Shown here in pieces: positions 3,231-10,914 of a stretch of DNA of 27,042 bases. The position numbers were made by a program, and so were the translations under genes. The notes below the pieces were generated by a model, which did not search any database, was not told the DNA's origin, and saw only the letters and a list, made by a program, of their open reading frames with translations. The DNA is from a virus (Duplodnaviria > Heunggongvirae > Uroviricota > Caudoviricetes). The stretch lies in the IMG/VR virus record IMGVR_UViG_2751185961_000011. One strand, written 5' to 3'. Position 1 is the first letter of the stretch. Every line of letters starts with the position of its first letter.

Positions 3231-3445
3231 TCCAGGAATCAACCGTTATCCGGTTCACAGCCAACGGCCGTCAGTACGAGGTAGACGAAAGCCTGATTGA
3301 CCAGGGCATGACACGCCAGGACTCACGCAATTCTGAGATGCATCACATCCGCCTTATCAACGGTTCGCACTTCTGCGCCACGAACATGGAAGAAGTACGC
3401 GTGCTGACAGCAACACGCAATACGGGAGGTAAAGCATGGCAGTGA
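3227..3445 (+). CDS. Hypothetical protein (72 aa)
   Basis: ATGA start/stop overlap with the upstream ORF (translational coupling). No motif recognised. Confidence 0.5.
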   Translation: MIQESTVIRFTANGRQYEVDESLIDQGMTRQDSRNSEMHHIRLINGSHFCATNMEEVRVLTATRNTGGKAWQ

Positions 3446-3786
3446 TTTATATCGCCGGTCCAATGACCGGATACAAAGATCACAACAGAACGGCGTTTTT
3501 CACAGAGGCGATGAGGCTCGCGGCAGACGGGCACGTTGTGCTGAACCCTGCCACGTTGCCGGAAGGATTAAGCCAGCAGCAGTACATGAGCATTTGTATT
3601 CCGATGCTCATGTGTGCCGATGCCATTTACTTACTGGAAGGCTGGGTGGATTCAGCTGGCGCGCGGGCGGAGTACGTAATGGCACTCAAACTGAACATGC
3701 CAGTGTCATTCCCGGAAAACCGGGCAGCCGGCGAAACCGTCGCGCAGCTGCTTCACAAATCAAAAGCCACACAGGCGACTGAGTAA
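3436..3786 (+). CDS. DUF4406-like / nucleoside 2-deoxyribosyltransferase-like small protein
   Basis: N-terminal MAVIYIAGPMTG... pattern is typical of the deoxyribosyltransferase-like fold proteins common in P2-like early regions. 116 aa. Confidence 0.5.
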   Translation: MAVIYIAGPMTGYKDHNRTAFFTEAMRLAADGHVVLNPATLPEGLSQQQYMSICIPMLMCADAIYLLEGWVDSAGARAEYVMALKLNMPVSFPENRAAGETVAQLLHKSKATQATE

Positions 3787-4224
3787 CCGACCGGAGATCG
3801 AAACATGATTGCGCGAAGAGCTACCAACCGTCTCACAGGCTTTATTCCAGGCAAGGTTGATCATGCACTCCATCACGGGGCTGTCACTTTCCTCAACAAA
3901 GGAGAGGCGCGCAATCATGCATTCCGGGGTGAGCACGTGGCGCTGGCTAATCAGTCTTTGATAGCTAAGCGCCTGCCATTCAGCCTTTTCAGCTCTGATA
4001 GAAAGAGAGGAAGCCATGACCTGCCACACCAGAAAGAGCACCACACTGGCGAAAACAAACGTTGCGCTGTCGCAAAAAATGAATGCGGCAACAATCGCAA
4101 GGAAAGCGCTAATCCTCAGAACCAAGGAAGCGCGACGGTGGAGAAGGCTTGTCATGTGTTCAAGCCAGTAGCTGTACCACAGGTCAAAAAGAATTTCGTA
4201 ATCAGAAGGGAGCTTATCACTCAT
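3760..4224 (-). CDS. Putative small membrane protein encoded antisense to the early operon (start uncertain; alternative in-frame start at 4284)
   Basis: Minus-strand ORF with two clear hydrophobic segments (LVLRISAFLAIVAAFIFC and FVFASVVLFLVWQVMASSL). The competing + strand ORF 3805-4911 translates to low-complexity sequence. Confidence 0.4.
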   Translation of the reverse strand: MSDKLPSDYEILFDLWYSYWLEHMTSLLHRRASLVLRISAFLAIVAAFIFCDSATFVFASVVLFLVWQVMASSLSIRAEKAEWQALSYQRLISQRHVLTPECMIARLSFVEESDSPVMECMINLAWNKACETVGSSSRNHVSISGRLLSRLCGF

Positions 4225-4607
4225 CAGAAACACCCCGCGTATGCAGACAATCACCAGTTGCCAGGTGATATTAATTCGCAACATTCTAACCACATCAGCA
4301 CGCAACACAAAAACCGCTTGCCAGCGCTCGTCGTGTCGGGTTACATTTCCGCTGCACCTCATAAAACGGGTGCCGGGTTTCGCAGCCTGCTGACAACCAA
4401 AGCGCACAACCGCGCCAGCGGTTTTTTTGTGCGTACTGTATTGCCACGTCTTTTTCGCGTCAGAATTATGGCGGGGCGTACGGGGCCGACTTCGGTCGGG
4501 CCGGGTTCTTTGGTTGCCGGTACTGCGAACCTCGTACGCCTCGCCACCCACAGTTTCGCAGCTCTGGATGGTGAGTTTTCAAAACTTACAACCAAAGAGG
4601 CCACACC

Positions 4608-4829
4608 ATGGCAAACCGCAAGCAACAGCGCGCCCGCGCTGAGCGTCTTCACATCCGCAGCGAAATCAACCGCAGACTCCATCGGGCTGCATCTGTCGCC
4701 TTTATCATGCAGTCAAACGTATTACACCGACTTAACGACGGTATCGCTGCCGGGTATTACGCGGCAGTCTTCAGCTATCTCGCCGAAGATCTGGCAGAAC
4801 TACAAAGCCTCATCAACCAGCACCGATAA
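4608..4829 (+). CDS. Hypothetical basic protein (73 aa)
   Basis: Strong RBS (AAAGAGG) 7 nt upstream of the ATG. Arg-rich N-terminus. Confidence 0.45.
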   Translation: MANRKQQRARAERLHIRSEINRRLHRAASVAFIMQSNVLHRLNDGIAAGYYAAVFSYLAEDLAELQSLINQHR

Positions 4830-4897
4830 ACCACATCCTGAAGCCATCCCGCACCCGTGCGCGGGAGGCTTCCGCACGTCTGTTACCGGAGGTTCTC

Positions 4898-5089
4898 ATG
4901 AAGAGCGTTAAGGGACTTTCAGATATTCAGGACTTTTTTAACTGGATGTGGGCGGTGGATCCCCTGCTGGCTTCCCGCCTGAACAACTGGCACGACTACT
5001 ACCGCCGCGCTGTAAACAGGCCGCCCGCAGCATCACCACATACGGGGATTTCTCCTTCACCGTTGACGGTCGTTACCGCGTGGACGTGA
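4898..5089 (+). CDS. Hypothetical protein (63 aa); may be the 5' part of a frameshifted gene continuing in 4948-5313
   Basis: GGAGG RBS 5 nt upstream of the ATG. Overlaps the next ORF in a different frame. Confidence 0.35.
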   Translation: MKSVKGLSDIQDFFNWMWAVDPLLASRLNNWHDYYRRAVNRPPAASPHTGISPSPLTVVTAWT

Positions 5090-5313
5090 AAGGTGACGGT
5101 GATGGCTTTGGTTTATTTCACATCAACGGCACCGACAGTACCGCCATCAGCTGGTCATCGTCAGAGATGGCACTGGTTCTGGAAATGACAACCCACAGCG
5201 TGGCCGTGAAAGGCATATACACCGCAGAAGACTTTATCGGTGAATACCAGCGCCTTCTCGTGCTGTACCGCGCGGCGTTTCAGGAGGTCACTGGCGGGGA
5301 GTACGACGCATGA
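4948..5313 (+). CDS. Hypothetical protein immediately upstream of and coupled to gene A (start uncertain; GTG at 4948)
   Basis: ORF ends with an ATGA overlap onto the gpA start at 5310. No canonical ATG near its 5' end. Confidence 0.4.
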   Translation: MGGGSPAGFPPEQLARLLPPRCKQAARSITTYGDFSFTVDGRYRVDVKGDGDGFGLFHINGTDSTAISWSSSEMALVLEMTTHSVAVKGIYTAEDFIGEYQRLLVLYRAAFQEVTGGEYDA

Positions 5314-8093
5314 GTGACCGCAATGCACAGCTGGCGTACCCGTGGAACGCACCGCTACCGGTTATCGATCCTGAAACGTTCGGCAGAGCACAACCAACCG
5401 CATTACGCCAGGCCATTCAGAGCTACATCAACGAGGACATTCGCATTGATGCCAGACTGGATGAAGAAACCGTCTCCTTCCTGACAAACACAGACGAAGG
5501 CAAGCGAATTAATTCGCACCTTCACCACGACGAAGAGCGTCGGATCAGACTGGAAAAACTGGCGCGGCACAAACGCGAAAATCCGCCAACGCTGGTATCG
5601 GAAGCCATGGCAGAACTTCGCGCCCTGCCCTCGTTTCTTGGTAACGCGCTCATTCGTGATCTGGCGCGTTTAAACCGCAAACAACAAAGCGCCCGCAATG
5701 AAGGCGTGAAAAACAACAACACTCACGTGGCCGATAACTTCGTTCGCCGTGGACTGCGCACACGCCTGAAACGCATCGAACAGGTGAATGAATGCTTCGC
5801 CACGACAGCATTCAAAGCCACCGCAGCACGCCATCGCCTTGATGAATTACTCATGCTGCCACAACTCAACCGTAATCAAATTCAGCGCCTTGCCACACTA
5901 ACGGCGGCGGCATTTTCCACCGAACTGGAACGCATATGTGATGAAGTTACTGAGCGGACAGGAAAAGGCGACGATAACCTGTTTACCTGGTTGCTGACTT
6001 ACCAGCAGCTGGCGCGCATGGCAATAAAACTGGGCGTGAACCCACCATACTGGCCGTCACTCGAGATCAGACGTGACCGCCGCACGGCACCAGACCCTGA
6101 ACTGGTACCGGGCGCGGTAATGCGTATCACCTGCGCCACCTGGTGGAACAACCAGCTGCGCCACCTCGCTGATCTCTGGCGGGAGGAATTACTGCGTGCC
6201 GCCGGAAGAGTATCGCGCAAGGCATCCCCCTACATCAGCCATGAGTCACTCCAGGAATTCCGGGAGAAACGCCAGCGCACCCGTGATTTTCTCAAAAGCT
6301 GGGACATTGAAAACGAAGACGGTGAACGCCTGAGTCTGGAGGACGTGTACTGGTCAGGGCTGGGGAATCCGCGCAACCGCCGCAACGAGATGATGGCCTG
6401 CGTCAGAGGGATGGAACAGGTCGCCGAATCGCGTGGTGACTCCGCGTTCTTCGTGACAGTAACCTGCCCTTCCCGCTTTCACAGCGTGAACGAGGACGGC
6501 AGCCTGAACCCGAAATACAACGGTGCCACCGTGCGCGATGCCAGTGATTATCTGGTTTACGACGTCTTTGCAGCTGCAAGAAAAAAACTCAACAAAGAAG
6601 GCCTGAGCTGGTACGGGGTGCGCACCGTTGAGCCACACCATGACGGCACACCGCACTGGCACATGCTGGTATTCACCGCCCCGGACAATGAAGAACGCAT
6701 CATTGAAATCATGCGTGACGCAGCAATCAAATCAGATCGCGCAGAACTGGGGGATGATATTTCTCCGCGCTTCAAATGCGAAAAAATCGACCCGGCAAAA
6801 GGCACACCGGCAAGTTACATTGCAACCTATATCGGCAAGAACCTGGACGCCAGCGCCTTCCATAACAATGACCCGAAAACCGGCAAACCTTACGCTGATG
6901 AGGAATCCGGAAAAACCATGGCGGAAACTGTGGAAAATGCCATTGCCTGGGCGAGCCTCCACCGCATCCGCCAGTTCCAGTTTTTCGGTATCCCGCCCCG
7001 CCAGGTATGGCGTGAACTGCGCCGTCTTGCCGGACAGATGGAGCGAAACCCGGCATCGCCAAAGCGCATCGACAATGACGACATTGATGCCATTCTGGCC
7101 GCCGCAGATGTGGGGTGTTTTGCCACCTACATGACTCGCCAGGGTGGTGTGAATATTCCGCGCAACCTGTATCTGATCCGCACCGCATACGAAACCGCAG
7201 ATGAGGCCAATGATTACGGGGAATTTCCTCAACGTATCTGGGGAATATGCGCCCCGTCGCTCGGCGAGCGCTACACCATCTGTACCCATCCGGACGAATG
7301 GAAACTGGTCAGAAAAGAAGCGAAATCCGACAACAGCACGGACGAGGGTTTTGACGTTGGGGGCGGCTTCGCCGCACCTTGGACTCGTGGCAATAACTGT
7401 CCCCGTGTACAGGAAACAGGCAACAGCGGGACAGAACAGTCGGAAGAGCAACCAACACCGTGGACGCAGATCCCTGACGGCGTTGATGTGGATGAGTGGA
7501 TGCGCTCACTGAAACGGCACGAACGCCGGGCGCTGATGCGTTCGCTGCGTGACAAACAGGCAAAAAACAGCAGTGATGAAATGCAGAACTGGACACAGAG
7601 CCGCAAACAGCCACGGCCTTTGCCTGATAACCACGAGTTACTCGCTAAAGAATGGCGGGAGTCTGCCGAATCTCTCGGCCTGCATATCGGTGAACAGCAG
7701 ATGCAGTACCTGTTACGGGGCGGCACTCTGTACGTTGACGGCAGCATCATTGCACCGCAGGGATTTGAAATTGTACGCAAACCGGATACCCGCCCGGACA
7801 GCCGAATCACGCAGCTCTGGCAGCGCCTGAGCCGTAATCACGGCGTAAGCAGCACGGAGATCCGCCATAACCCGGTCGCCAGCTATCTGGAGCAGCTCGG
7901 GGCATCAGACCCCGAAGCCGCCGCACGCCTGGCATCCACAATTCAGCAGGACCAGAACACCATGAAAACTCCCGTTACCGTGCTTTCTGACATGCTGCGC
8001 GCCATCCGTGACACAGAGCACGCACAAAGAATCAATGAAACCACTGAACGCGCCCGCCGCAAGGCTACTTTGCTCCAAAAGAGAGGCAAATAG
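5310..8093 (+). CDS. A: Rolling-circle replication initiator endonuclease (P2 gpA-like)
   Basis: 927-aa ORF. HUH motif HWHMLVF (His codons 6654-6662). Paired catalytic tyrosines Y-IAT-Y in SYIATYIGKNLD (Tyr codons 6816-6818 and 6828-6830), matching the phiX174 A / P2 A RCR motif 3. Position between the early genes and the hotspot matches P2. Confidence 0.9.
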   Translation: MSDRNAQLAYPWNAPLPVIDPETFGRAQPTALRQAIQSYINEDIRIDARLDEETVSFLTNTDEGKRINSHLHHDEERRIRLEKLARHKRENPPTLVSEAMAELRALPSFLGNALIRDLARLNRKQQSARNEGVKNNNTHVADNFVRRGLRTRLKRIEQVNECFATTAFKATAARHRLDELLMLPQLNRNQIQRLATLTAAAFSTELERICDEVTERTGKGDDNLFTWLLTYQQLARMAIKLGVNPPYWPSLEIRRDRRTAPDPELVPGAVMRITCATWWNNQLRHLADLWREELLRAAGRVSRKASPYISHESLQEFREKRQRTRDFLKSWDIENEDGERLSLEDVYWSGLGNPRNRRNEMMACVRGMEQVAESRGDSAFFVTVTCPSRFHSVNEDGSLNPKYNGATVRDASDYLVYDVFAAARKKLNKEGLSWYGVRTVEPHHDGTPHWHMLVFTAPDNEERIIEIMRDAAIKSDRAELGDDISPRFKCEKIDPAKGTPASYIATYIGKNLDASAFHNNDPKTGKPYADEESGKTMAETVENAIAWASLHRIRQFQFFGIPPRQVWRELRRLAGQMERNPASPKRIDNDDIDAILAAADVGCFATYMTRQGGVNIPRNLYLIRTAYETADEANDYGEFPQRIWGICAPSLGERYTICTHPDEWKLVRKEAKSDNSTDEGFDVGGGFAAPWTRGNNCPRVQETGNSGTEQSEEQPTPWTQIPDGVDVDEWMRSLKRHERRALMRSLRDKQAKNSSDEMQNWTQSRKQPRPLPDNHELLAKEWRESAESLGLHIGEQQMQYLLRGGTLYVDGSIIAPQGFEIVRKPDTRPDSRITQLWQRLSRNHGVSSTEIRHNPVASYLEQLGASDPEAAARLASTIQQDQNTMKTPVTVLSDMLRAIRDTEHAQRINETTERARRKATLLQKRGK

Positions 8094-8353: not shown

Positions 8354-9199
8354 ATGACAAAGCCTTCTCATTTTAGAACCCCTCTTCGTTATCCGGGAGG
8401 TAAGGCAAAATTCTTGCCACATATTGAACAAATACTCCGCAACAATGATCTCATTGGTGGATGTTATGCTGAACCTTATGCAGGTGGAGCCGGTGTAGCA
8501 TTAGGTTTGCTCCTTAACGGTCTTGTTGAAAATATCTTCATAAATGATATTGATCCTGCCCTTTATTCTTTTTGGTTTGCAGTGGTTAATCATAACGATC
8601 TGTTATGTGAAATGATTGATGAAGTTCCTGTGACTATTGAAAATTGGCATACTCAAAAGGAGATACTCCTAAACAATGATAAATATAGTATGCTTGAAGT
8701 CGCATTATCTACTTTCTTTTTAAATAGAACAAACCGTTCAGGAATACTTAAGGCTGGCGTTATTGGAGGGAAAGAACAAAAAGGACCATGGAAGTTAGAT
8801 GCAAGATTCAACAAAAAAGAGTTAATTAAAAGGATTGAACTAATTGGTGCATATAAGGAGAAAATTTACGTATCGAATTTTGATGCTGCAGATTTTCTGC
8901 TACACCAAAAAGCATTACTACCCCAAAATAGTCTAATATATCTTGATCCACCTTATTATGTTAAAGGAGCAGAGTTATATAGAAATTTTTATAAACATGA
9001 TGATCATGTAAAAATCGCTAATACACTACGTGAAATTCAACTACCTTGGGTTGTGTCTTATGACAATGTGCCTGAAATAAAAAGCATATATCATGAATTC
9101 AACATGACTGATTATACGCTTAATTATACTGCACAAGATAAGAAAAAAGGTCTAGAAATTATCATTTATAATCATGGTATAAAAATCCCTGACATTTAA
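8354..9199 (+). CDS. Dam-family (D12-class) N6-adenine DNA methyltransferase, island copy
   Basis: N-terminal PLRYPGGKAKF and AEPYAGGAGVALG (SAM-binding motif I). DPPY catalytic motif at 8945-8956. 281 aa. AT-rich codon usage unlike the rest of the prophage. Confidence 0.85.
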   Translation: MTKPSHFRTPLRYPGGKAKFLPHIEQILRNNDLIGGCYAEPYAGGAGVALGLLLNGLVENIFINDIDPALYSFWFAVVNHNDLLCEMIDEVPVTIENWHTQKEILLNNDKYSMLEVALSTFFLNRTNRSGILKAGVIGGKEQKGPWKLDARFNKKELIKRIELIGAYKEKIYVSNFDAADFLLHQKALLPQNSLIYLDPPYYVKGAELYRNFYKHDDHVKIANTLREIQLPWVVSYDNVPEIKSIYHEFNMTDYTLNYTAQDKKKGLEIIIYNHGIKIPDI

Positions 9200-9216
9200 A
9201 TTTAAGGATGATATAG

Positions 9217-10914
9217 ATGATTAAAGAAATTAGTTTTAAAAAATTTAAGAAACTGATAGATATTGACTTCTCATTCAATGAAGACATCAATATAATATCA
9301 GGAACCAATGGGACATGTAAGACAACATTGCTTCATTTAATTAGCAATGGTTTCCAAATACCACCATCTAGATCACAAAATTATTCAAATAGTAATTGTG
9401 TTAGAGTTATAAAATCTATAAACAAAATAGCCAACCCAAAAATGGAAGCAATTGTTAGGGAATCAAAAAATTACACCGATCCGGCAGAGGGAACAAAAGG
9501 TGTGTTATTTTCTATTAACTATTTGGATCATAGCACACTAGACTTCAGAAAGCACAACTCAAAAAATCCAGACGAAGCGCAACGGTATGCTATCAAACCA
9601 GTATACCCACGCGGAAAAGAAAAACAATCACTTCCAGCTAAACCAGTTTTATATCTTGGATTATCGCGACTATTCCCGATTGGTGAAACTAAAGACGACG
9701 CCCTTACAAAAATTCCGTTAAACCTACCAGAAGAGTATGTTGGTTATATATCGAAAATATATAATGAACTTTTGGGCATTAATATTATAAATATAGAATC
9801 AAACAATATCGGAGATTTTAAAGCTGGCCCATTATTTGATACCGATAACCCAGCAATTGATTCTAATACCATATCATCCGGGGAAGACAATATATTCATT
9901 ATAATCAAGGCATTAGTTAGCCTTAGGTATTATTTTGAATCACTTATTCAATCCACTGATCAAAAAGAAAGCATTCTGTTAATAGATGAATTTGATGCCA
10001 CTTTACATCCTTCTTTACAGATAAGATTATTAGATAAAATTTATCAATACGCAAAAGATTATAAGATTCAAGTATTTTTCACAACGCACAGTCTGACATT
10101 GCTAGAATATGCTTTTCATAAAAAATACCATGTTGTCTATCTAATTAACAATATTACAAAGGCTCTGCTTTTGGATAATCCTGATATATTAAAAATAACA
10201 ATGTATCTGAAAACACAAACAAAGGATGAGATATACACAAGGAACAAGATACCAGTTTTCACGGAAGATGAAGAAGCTCGCTTTTTATTTAATGAAATAC
10301 TTGGTTATTGGATAAGCAAATATCCAAATTTTGCTATAGTTAGTAATTCATTTCACTTAATTGATTGTTTCATTGGTGCAGACAATTTAAAAACTATTTT
10401 TAATGATTCTCATCTTAAGGAAACCTCGTTAAAATCAATTTGTATTCTTGATGGAGATCACAGCCCTGAGGATCAGAGAGGAATTATATCACTGCCGGGT
10501 GAAAAAGCTCCAGAACAATTGATATTTGAGCATTGTGAGCACCTTTATAATACCGACGACTCTTCCTTCTGGGAAAATCAGGATATAATTAACAATGGTT
10601 TTTCGAAAGAGTTATACTTACTCAAGATACGTCCTCAATTACAATCAATTGAAACTGAAATTCAGAAAAGAAAAGACAACCATGAGTCTACATCCGGTTT
10701 AAGAAGAAAATTAAATAAGAAAATATTCAATCAGCATATTGAATTCTTTAGAATGATTACAAGAAACTGGTTAAACAAACCAGAAAATCAGAAATCTCTC
10801 CAGTATTTTTACAATGGATTACGATCCTTATTCTACCGGGTTACACCAACAAACGGCATTGACAGAAAAATTTGGGATTTTGACTATAACAAAATCATTA
10901 AAGAGGATAAATAA
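9217..10914 (+). CDS. OLD-family-like ABC-type ATPase with putative C-terminal TOPRIM nuclease domain
   Basis: Walker A GTNGTCKTT (9301-9327). Walker B LLIDEFD (D-E codons 9985-9990). H-loop-like VFFTTHS. C-terminal acidic motifs VFTEDEE (10255-10275) and ILDGDHS (DGD at 10450-10458) fit the TOPRIM glutamate plus DxD pattern. 565 aa, close to P2 Old in size and in the P2 old locus. AAGGA RBS 7 nt upstream and 17 nt after the methyltransferase stop. Confidence 0.75.
   Translation: MIKEISFKKFKKLIDIDFSFNEDINIISGTNGTCKTTLLHLISNGFQIPPSRSQNYSNSNCVRVIKSINKIANPKMEAIVRESKNYTDPAEGTKGVLFSINYLDHSTLDFRKHNSKNPDEAQRYAIKPVYPRGKEKQSLPAKPVLYLGLSRLFPIGETKDDALTKIPLNLPEEYVGYISKIYNELLGINIINIESNNIGDFKAGPLFDTDNPAIDSNTISSGEDNIFIIIKALVSLRYYFESLIQSTDQKESILLIDEFDATLHPSLQIRLLDKIYQYAKDYKIQVFFTTHSLTLLEYAFHKKYHVVYLINNITKALLLDNPDILKITMYLKTQTKDEIYTRNKIPVFTEDEEARFLFNEILGYWISKYPNFAIVSNSFHLIDCFIGADNLKTIFNDSHLKETSLKSICILDGDHSPEDQRGIISLPGEKAPEQLIFEHCEHLYNTDDSSFWENQDIINNGFSKELYLLKIRPQLQSIETEIQKRKDNHESTSGLRRKLNKKIFNQHIEFFRMITRNWLNKPENQKSLQYFYNGLRSLFYRVTPTNGIDRKIWDFDYNKIIKEDK

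Follow-up and report, generated by a model that had tools for sequence, protein, structure and literature searches.

Both strands of an early-region interval in a P88-type prophage appear to be used, by an antisense RNA immunity module and an accessory membrane-protein gene

What is a backward-facing membrane-protein gene doing in the early operon of a P2-family prophage, and do the RNA structures beside it belong to it? The question arises in IMG/VR record IMGVR_UViG_2751185961_000011, a stretch of 27,042 nt (the window, whose positions are used throughout unless another locus is named) that comprises the early and some of the late region of a P88-type (Xuanwuvirus) prophage in the P2 family. 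Its closest annotated relatives are Escherichia coli prophages, with 96% identity over 3400–5300, and phage P88 is the closest annotated relative for the segment 4287–4792. A sequence-only reading had described, at about 3760–4600, a minus-strand gene for a protein with two transmembrane (TM) segments and a structured but non-coding flank, and had interpreted such a gene as a typical sign of a moron, with superinfection exclusion or a toxin as examples. Its observations are partly confirmed, in that the features are real and the label "non-coding" is wrong; its interpretation is partly supported, in that the membrane gene is real and accessory, whereas the hairpins are part of a distinct RNA immunity module of a known kind. 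Both strands of the interval appear to be used. Our reading, to which we assign a probability of roughly 60%, is that two independent modules share this DNA, a plus-strand RNA anti-immunity module and a minus-strand accessory two-TM gene, and that a plus-strand frame has been kept open across the insert.

The RNA module on the plus strand

The flank, put earlier at about 380 bp, measures 383 bp from the start of the minus-strand open reading frame (ORF) at 4224 to the next annotated ATG at 4608, but it is not anonymous non-coding sequence: it holds the RNAs IsrK and C4, both on the plus strand, together with promoter-like sites and C4 target sites, and all of it is enclosed by an open plus-strand frame whose translation matches Phage_ASH. 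IsrK (4354–4428), a leader RNA like seqA of phage P4, matches Rfam RF01394 with 65.9 bits against a gathering threshold of 50, over the full length of the model (positions 1–77 of 77) and including the 3' intrinsic terminator at 4408–4428. The stem and run of seven T residues that had been noticed previously are therefore present, but calling them weak was functionally wrong, since they are the IsrK terminator. A weak match to the Rfam family c4-a1b1 overlaps IsrK, and a promoter scan placed a promoter-like site (TTGCCA, 18 nt, TACATT) at 4318–4347 on the plus strand, ending 7 nt before the start of the Rfam IsrK match. C4 (4464–4551), the antisense RNA known in P4 as CI RNA, matches RF01695 with 85.7 bits against a gathering threshold of 45, again over the full length (positions 1–87 of 87), and has a predicted fold of −49.5 kcal/mol; the UUCG hairpin, correctly located at 4486–4499, is its first inner helix. 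The literature equates IsrK with P4 seqA and C4 with P4 CI RNA, and describes the same arrangement as controlling anti-repressors in Gifsy-1, P1/P7 and N15; c4 is described as an antisense RNA (Citron and Schuster 1990, as cited), and Hfq binding with trans-activation of the downstream anti-repressor is known for Gifsy-1 IsrK only.

Complementary sites for C4 flank it on both sides of the same strand. Its recognition loop a' (4507–4516, in a 12-nt loop) and its junction b' (CUGCGAA, 4523–4529) find upstream targets within IsrK, namely b1 at 4379–4385 (UUCGCAG) and a1 at 4394–4402 (CAACCAAAG), and downstream targets b2 at 4555–4561 (UUCGCAG) and a2 at 4589–4598 (CAACCAAAGA). Complementarity is exact over 9–10 nt for the loop (a1, a2) and 7 nt for the junction (b1, b2), and a2 overlaps the Shine–Dalgarno sequence AAGAGG (4595–4600) of ATG 4608. 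We take this layout of a1/b1 and a2/b2 targets to be that of phage P1 c4. The gene that opens at this ATG (4608–4829, plus strand) encodes a predicted anti-repressor of 73 aa, with matches to the Pfam family Derepression (PF25738; 27.9 bits against a cut-off of 27) and to phrog_3688 (1e-31); the Prokaryotic Genome Annotation Pipeline (PGAP) names it "derepression protein" in a relative. A tblastn comparison with P4 epsilon gave 34% identity over 50 aa (E 0.06), which suggests a distant homologue.

To these complementarities we can add their covariation in 126 modules, comprising 120 viral contigs with an invariant C4 hairpin, E. coli loci and the window. Among these, 21 loop sequences (including CUUUGGUUG and CUUUGCUAG) and 10 junction sequences occur in 29 combinations. 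A 9-nt exact complement of the locus's own loop is present in IsrK in 107/126 modules, and a 9–10-nt complement lies downstream in 112/126, whereas loops set against the targets of other alleles mostly match over 0–5 nt. Because loop, upstream target and downstream target co-vary in this way, we regard the pairing of the C4 loop and junction as functional. The C4 alleles look like recombining immunity specificities, and their variety implies that many heteroimmune types may exist among P88-like prophages and P4-like elements.

Further features of the module deserve mention. Loop and junction alleles are shuffled independently of each other across the 126 C4 loci. Between the IsrK terminator and C4 there is a second promoter-like site (TTGCCA, 17 nt, AATTAT; 4441–4469), whose −10 element is formed by the opening six bases of the Rfam C4 model; a transcript started there would therefore have a truncated C4 closing stem. 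In the E. coli G1/2 prophage (L006, NZ_CP060083.1, 3900–5200), the IsrK–C4–derepression segment is duplicated in tandem, with different loop alleles in the two C4 copies and a truncated first derepression gene.

The module is known biology overlooked by ordinary annotation, and the window adds a new member of it in a P2-type phage. Standard pipelines leave the RNA part unannotated, and PGAP puts a spurious ORF there: in the relative L001 (6960–7148), a minus-strand ORF of 62 aa has been placed over IsrK and C4.

The membrane-protein gene on the minus strand

On the opposite strand, a mechanically called ORF spans 3760–4551, within which the likely gene is 3760–4224, with its start at ATG 4224 and a length of 154 aa. 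This start is conserved and is preceded by GGGGTG, and a product of 154 aa agrees with the PGAP calls for several relatives and with the size of diverged homologues; the 3' end overlaps the last 27 nt of the DUF4406 gene. As the sequence-only reading had held, it is the sole credible minus-strand gene of the early region, judging by the PGAP annotation of a 96%-identical prophage, and hydropathy (Kyte–Doolittle windows) bears out two hydrophobic helices, at about residues 33–52 and 55–76. Along the protein, an N-terminal helix bearing the conserved LWYSYWLE motif precedes the two TM helices, and the C-terminal domain is helical. An AlphaFold (AF2) model built from 23 homologues, with a mean predicted local distance difference test score of 79.6, shows two long helices arranged as a hairpin (residues 8–50 and 54–93), followed by three short C-terminal helices (100–112, 116–133 and 143–152).

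To quantify selection, the window was compared with allele L003 (80% DNA identity). The ratio of non-synonymous to synonymous substitution rates (dN/dS) was 0.19–0.24 in the minus frame, compared to 1.1–1.3 for the same bases read in the plus frame. Substitutions at codon positions 1, 2 and 3 of the minus frame numbered 26, 16 and 49, and synonymous to non-synonymous changes stood at 30:32 in the minus frame versus 5:56 in the plus frame. Since dN/dS is about 0.2, the protein belongs to a family of 229 clusters and the lambdoid homologues have an opposite frame full of stops, the ORF at 3760–4224 is, by these comparative measures, a real gene. A candidate promoter for it (TTGTGT, 16 nt, TAGAAT; 8 of 12 matches), read from the sequence at 4283–4310 on the minus strand, would stand back to back with the IsrK promoter; the match is weak, and its TAGAAT aligns with TATAAT in L023.

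How far the family extends depended on the search. A word-indexed search returned relatives from E. coli only, a profile that included diverged copies from viral contigs reached Enterobacter, Salmonella, Brenneria and Cedecea, and an exhaustive HMMER search yielded the 229 clusters (at 50% identity), nearly all of 150–180 aa. Conserved motifs are LW(Y/N)SYWLE before TM1, RAE..A..Q...Y..LI after TM2 and E..DS....NKA further on. The window protein matches phrog_6315 at 1.3e-65, a group listed in PHROGs as of unknown function. The homology check proposed earlier has thus produced a prophage family, but not a named one: no Pfam or NCBIfam family covers the window protein or its relatives. PADLOC-DB 2.0 gave no defence-model match for the window protein, a profile search of PDB sequences gave nothing below E 0.1, a Foldseek search of BFVD gave no match at E ≤ 0.001, and a literature search for STM2734 gave no match. 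A match of the window protein to DUF6239 (E 0.003) was rejected, as it lay below the cut-off and was not reproduced in relatives.

Below the curated thresholds, a similarity to the SLATT families recurs. Weak matches to NCBIfam SLATT_4 occur in 34 of 88 family members (best E 2.2e-5) and to SLATT_1 in 9; the two SLATT_4 scores seen (14.1 and 14.6 bits) fall well short of the 55 bits required. Pfam SLATT_3 was matched by one family member at E 0.64, the PADLOC models for 2TM effectors and for SLATT proteins associated with reverse transcriptase (RT), RTasSLATT, gave weak matches in 13 of the 88 relatives, and five SLATT proteins are among the weak top fold matches in BFVD. The architecture, two TM helices with flanking helices in both hydropathy and the AF2 model, is of the SLATT type. 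The window protein itself matches no SLATT profile (Pfam PF18181 and related; NCBIfam NF033632 and NF033634), and no linked SMODS, SLOG, RT or cyclase gene lies beside the membrane gene in the contexts examined, among which its neighbours vary. DUF4406 was considered as a conserved SLOG-type partner and ruled out, its adjacency being confined to E. coli lineages. Because no curated threshold is reached, we call the family SLATT-like rather than SLATT, on the strength of a weak, sub-threshold similarity.

A side observation concerns the region just upstream. Most membrane-gene homologues are preceded, at a distance of 5–11 nt, by a small conserved ORF of 26–45 aa with the motif D.FHV..(R/H)KPAP.PE and an acidic tail (for example, MSDTDKFHVPRKPAPSPEKGKGGDDDED), which suggests a two-gene cassette. 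Carriers are L128 (4914–5000), L130, L067, L127, L137 (Fels-2), L138, L132, L135 and L136, and include P2-like, lambdoid and Mu-like prophages; a search of the window and its close E. coli relatives did not find this ORF.

What might the protein do? Our preferred guess, held at somewhat under even odds, is exclusion or abortive infection: recurrent placement in or beside immunity and early regions and the weak SLATT/2TM similarity point to an effector in conflict. Less likely, though of appreciable weight, is the view that the protein serves neither defence nor exclusion and is a toxin–antitoxin (TA) toxin, a regulator of lysis or of the holin type, or a factor acting on host physiology (conversion). 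The tightly linked upstream ORF of the relatives (FHV..RKPAP.. and acidic) resembles a TA-like two-gene layout, the window protein lacks a defence-model match and the fold search was uninformative. However, that small ORF is missing from the window copy, and the recurrent genomic placement, taken with the SLATT/2TM matches, points to conflict systems.

The plus-strand frame across the insert

The membrane gene is crossed in antisense by a plus-strand frame of 368 codons (3805–4911), here called the through-ORF, which continues across the IsrK promoter, IsrK, C4 and, in another frame, the derepression gene. It is in frame with the preceding DUF4406 gene (3436–3786, plus strand; nucleoside 2-deoxyribosyltransferase-like; Pfam DUF4406, 115.5 bits; phrog_355), whose TAA (3784–3786) is the sole stop of that frame. 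Its ATG at 3805 lies 18 nt past this stop with GGAG 8 nt upstream, and its end at 4911 overlaps ATG 4898 of the next ORF, which in turn overlaps gpA in intact relatives. Residues 180–271 (nt 4342–4617) match Pfam Phage_ASH (PF10554) with 27.9 bits against a cut-off of 26; the P88 version also passes, with 27.1, and the 214-aa ORF of P4 (Eta) scores 82.2. The latter (L139, 4169–4813) likewise contains isrK (4616–4693) and C4 (4421–4508), begins within alpA-like ORF88 upstream of it and, at its other end, overlaps the start of epsilon. Where the membrane gene is absent, the corresponding frame opens at an ATG closely following the stop of the preceding gene, some 57 nt ahead of IsrK, and finishes at the same place; the frame is open in 97/126 loci. 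In P4, Eta is translated only from the upstream promoter, coupled to the preceding gene, and its translation prevents immunity-dependent termination, according to the summary of Forti et al. 1999 given in a 2023 paper (PMC10111431).

Evidence for a translated frame in the window comes from the codon usage of the gene on the other strand. In ten diverged homologues that lie antisense to lytic operons, the codons that would create stops in the mirror frame are avoided: TCA makes up 0/60 TCN codons, CTA 2/144 and TTA 6/35, and, in the window, the single TTA arises opposite the stop codon of the gene upstream. By comparison, the other genes of this phage use TCA for 41% of TCN and TTA for 62% of TTR codons. 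The probability of finding no TCA among 60 is about 1e-14 at 41% usage, 7e-7 at a usage of 0.21 and 0.002 when only four deep lineages are counted. No such avoidance is seen in the two lambdoid homologues, neither of which lies antisense to an operon: TCA, CTA and TTA are all freely used, and the mirror frame contains 11–17 stops. Because its geometry is operon-like, it matches Phage_ASH and the membrane gene avoids stop-creating codons, the through-ORF is not noise; judged from its position and content, it is the counterpart of P4 Eta (Ash family) with a 5' extension, the protein similarity being at profile level only.

Could the open frame be a by-product of codon bias, a shadow ORF that is not translated, with early transcripts crossing the insert by other means? 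We consider this improbable, though well short of negligible. In genomes with at least 50% guanine plus cytosine, this antisense frame commonly harbours shadow ORFs. The window gene has few A-ending codons (8% in four-fold families), and the amino acids of the through-ORF are unconstrained, as its dN/dS of 1.1–1.3 shows. Against it, A-ending codons make up 20% in the other four-fold families of the same homologue genes in which TCA is absent, TCA is frequent in the rest of this phage, the lambdoid homologues show no avoidance, and the open frame with its operon-like start and end junctions has been kept in two E. coli lineages despite a membrane-protein identity of only 38% between them.

Mirror frames have also entered deposited annotations. 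For Fels-2 (L137, STM2733.1) and Yersinia phage vB_YenM_42.18 (L138, gene 008), the early-strand mirror ORF was called and the membrane-protein homologue was missed. These calls, like the 62-aa ORF over IsrK and C4, are likely mis-annotations arising from frames that are open on two strands.

Two modules in one interval

The two components are distributed very differently. The membrane gene is present in 25/5,426 complete E. coli genomes, and the 1,901-bp stretch is covered to at least 80% in 25 genomes; the IsrK–C4–derepression segment occurs in approximately 1,282. Among 112 related loci, the slot just upstream of IsrK is filled by at least six different genes, including a 99-aa ORF (57 loci), an SPFH protein as in P88 (24) and the membrane gene (11). 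The proposal of a moron-like accessory gene is borne out by this rarity and by the variable slot. Diverged homologues (34–39% identity) have the same position and orientation beside IsrK in other phages; those of Brenneria and Enterobacter lie between cox and the C repressor, others are antisense in early operons of Salmonella (where no IsrK or C4 was found) and, by annotation, of Fels-2 and Yersinia phage 42.18, and yet others neighbour the S24 repressor in lambdoid prophages or belong to a Mu-like prophage. A scan of the membrane-gene loci L127, L128 and L130 found neither IsrK nor C4. As each occurs without the other, the membrane gene and the RNA module are independent, and a functional tie between them was rejected on distribution. 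In the P2-family prophages examined in which C and int are visible, the membrane gene has the same orientation as repressor and integrase, which fits expression in the lysogen.

This bears directly on the proposal that the interval is an independent moron with its own structured regulatory flank, in which the hairpins would serve the membrane gene as promoter region, terminator or antisense control. The gene is indeed accessory, and its promoter must fall within 4225–4350. However, both structures are on the plus strand and are full-length IsrK and C4 matches, they occur in about 1,282 E. coli genomes versus 25 for the gene, and the gene is found in Fels-2, Yersinia, Salmonella, Enterobacter and Brenneria prophages, with no IsrK or C4 in the three loci scanned. 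We therefore consider a joint unit very improbable; the structured region is a separate, known RNA immunity module on the opposite strand. Least credible of all is the idea that only the plus-strand ORF is real and the "membrane protein" its shadow, for which a good Shine–Dalgarno sequence, operon-like junctions, the Pfam match and the depositors' mirror ORFs in Fels-2 (STM2733.1) and Yersinia phage 42.18 could be cited, but which founders on the contrast in dN/dS and in synonymous to non-synonymous changes between the frames, the 11–17 mirror-frame stops in lambdoid homologues, and the size of the family (229 clusters) with its conserved motifs and its confident helical model. Genuine homologues of the frame 3805–4911 had been named beforehand as grounds for giving up the minus-strand gene; such homologues formally exist, in Phage_ASH and the P4 Eta family, yet the minus-strand gene stands. 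The plus-strand ORF is a meaningful Eta-like frame and does not refute it.

Several observations weigh against the reading of two independent modules bridged by an Eta-like frame. BLASTP finds no similarity between the window's through-ORF and P4 Eta, the Phage_ASH match is marginal (27.9 versus 26), and, because the Ash "domain" translates conserved RNA genes, the match may reflect conservation of RNA rather than of protein. Within the derepression gene the through-frame is open in 57/70 sequences, which is suggestive but, set against synonymous shuffles, not significant per sequence (median P 0.29), and the homologue L128 has three mirror stops. The PF25738 match of the derepression gene is barely above its cut-off. 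For the minus-strand gene, no promoter reaches threshold in the promoter scan, the candidate at 4283–4310 falling below it, and the window copy might be incomplete, as the small upstream ORF is missing.

Under our preferred reading of two independent modules, the locus could work as follows. Transcription from the promoter at about 4318–4347 would produce IsrK and stop at its T7 terminator, and read-through would produce C4. The C4 loop and junction would pair with the two sites in IsrK and with the two downstream, one of which covers the anti-repressor's ribosome-binding site. By analogy with P1 c4 and P4 CI, C4 may keep the anti-repressor and, through polarity, also gpA silent in the lysogen. 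The membrane gene would most likely have its own promoter, back to back with that of IsrK, and be made in the lysogen, its product possibly acting at the membrane as an effector in phage–phage conflict. Its insertion would leave about 0.8 kb of early mRNA untranslated, and the phage appears instead to keep the plus frame open: ribosomes leaving DUF4406 would restart at ATG 3805 and continue across the antisense gene, past the IsrK terminator and through C4 with its targets, as far as the next ORF. By analogy with P4 Eta, such translation may shield early-promoter transcripts from termination, whether Rho-dependent or C4-dependent, and in lytic growth convergent transcription would shut off the membrane gene.

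A bolder version, which we put forward only tentatively, makes the interval a dual-strand toggle between lysogeny and lysis, in which a SLATT-like effector gene is nested inside an Eta-like anti-polarity ORF. The effector's codons (no TCA, almost no CTA or TTA) would be selected purely for translatability of the early strand, and early read-through would at once reach gpA and silence an effector made only in the lysogen. The same device would recur wherever the family lies antisense in a lytic operon (E. coli, Salmonella Fels-2, Yersinia, Brenneria, Mu-like).

Comparison with characterized systems places the module closest to the P4 immunity region (PLE, seqA, CI RNA, seqC, nested eta/kil, epsilon, alpha). 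In both, an Ash-family ORF encloses an IsrK/seqA-like leader together with a C4/CI RNA; this ORF begins beside the preceding gene, ahead of the internal promoter, and ends at the next gene, with epsilon-like and replication genes downstream. Unlike P4, which is a satellite, the present phage is of the P2-like helper type; its epsilon-like gene does not follow the through-ORF but sits within it in a different frame, the C4 target falls on the ribosome-binding site of the derepression gene rather than on that of kil, and the through-ORF is longer by 146 codons across the antisense gene. The immI region of P1/P7 (c4 RNA, a1/b1, a2/b2, icd, ant) shares the bipartite antisense element with targets upstream and downstream of the RNA, a downstream target on a ribosome-binding site, control of an anti-repressor and allele-specific pairing that gives immunity types. 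In contrast to immI, the window has no icd or ant homologue, its upstream target region has its own terminator (IsrK) and the module sits inside the early replication operon. Gifsy-1 of Salmonella (IsrK–orf45 (STnc1160)–AnrP) likewise has IsrK with a leaky terminator, then a processed C4-like RNA and an anti-repressor gene, but the anti-repressor family and phage type differ, and there is no AntQ link here. As for the membrane protein, it resembles the SLATT 2TM effectors associated with cyclic-oligonucleotide-based antiphage signaling systems (CBASS), retrons and defense-associated reverse transcriptases (DRT) in size (about 150–180 aa), in its two-TM hairpin with flanking helices and in weak sequence and fold similarity. 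It differs from them in standing alone or, in relatives, paired with the peptide of 26–45 aa, and in reaching no curated threshold.

Naming the RNA module explains how the anti-repressor, and probably the replication gene, are gated in P88-like P2-family prophages, which occur in about a quarter of complete E. coli genomes; the gate is a P4/P1-type antisense RNA with many exchangeable specificity alleles. A through-ORF held open where it crosses an antisense gene extends the P4 Eta principle in a new way, and the codon avoidance that accompanies it looks like a clean, testable example in which selection acts on translatability and not on protein sequence, showing how phages can tolerate backward-facing cargo in polarity-sensitive operons. 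The membrane family is uncharacterized and, being spread across P2-like, lambdoid and Mu-like prophages at sites in or adjoining their immunity and early regions, is a reasonable candidate for a new exclusion or abortive-infection factor, whether as a single gene or as peptide plus 2TM protein. For annotation, the lesson is that either strand alone gives an incomplete picture.

The surrounding early genes lie on the plus strand in the order DUF4761, DUF4754, 3'–5' exonuclease, ParE-like ORF, Dam methylase, two small ORFs, DUF4406, the interval discussed here, the derepression gene, a phrog_3237 ORF (4898–5313, frameshifted in the window) and the replication endonuclease gpA (5310–8093); a scan of the window for tRNA and tmRNA found none. 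The small ORF at 1775–1981, just upstream of the Dam methylase, is annotated by PGAP as a "ParE family toxin-like protein" in relatives, with no adjoining antitoxin annotated. Compared to the otherwise identical 138-aa ORF of L001, the phrog_3237 ORF is split by a single-base deletion near 5010 (one C missing after ...CGCCGCG); this is a sequencing error or else a genuine frameshift, in which case translational coupling into gpA would be lost. Immediately downstream of gpA, at the position of the P2 tin/old hotspot, lie a second D12-class adenine methyltransferase gene (8354–9199) and, next to it, a gene for a 565-aa AAA_15/AAA_21 (OLD/AbiEii-like) ATPase (9217–10914). The AT-rich codon usage of the genes in 8354–10914 is clearly unlike that of the rest of the phage, and the stretch is probably a defense cargo locus.

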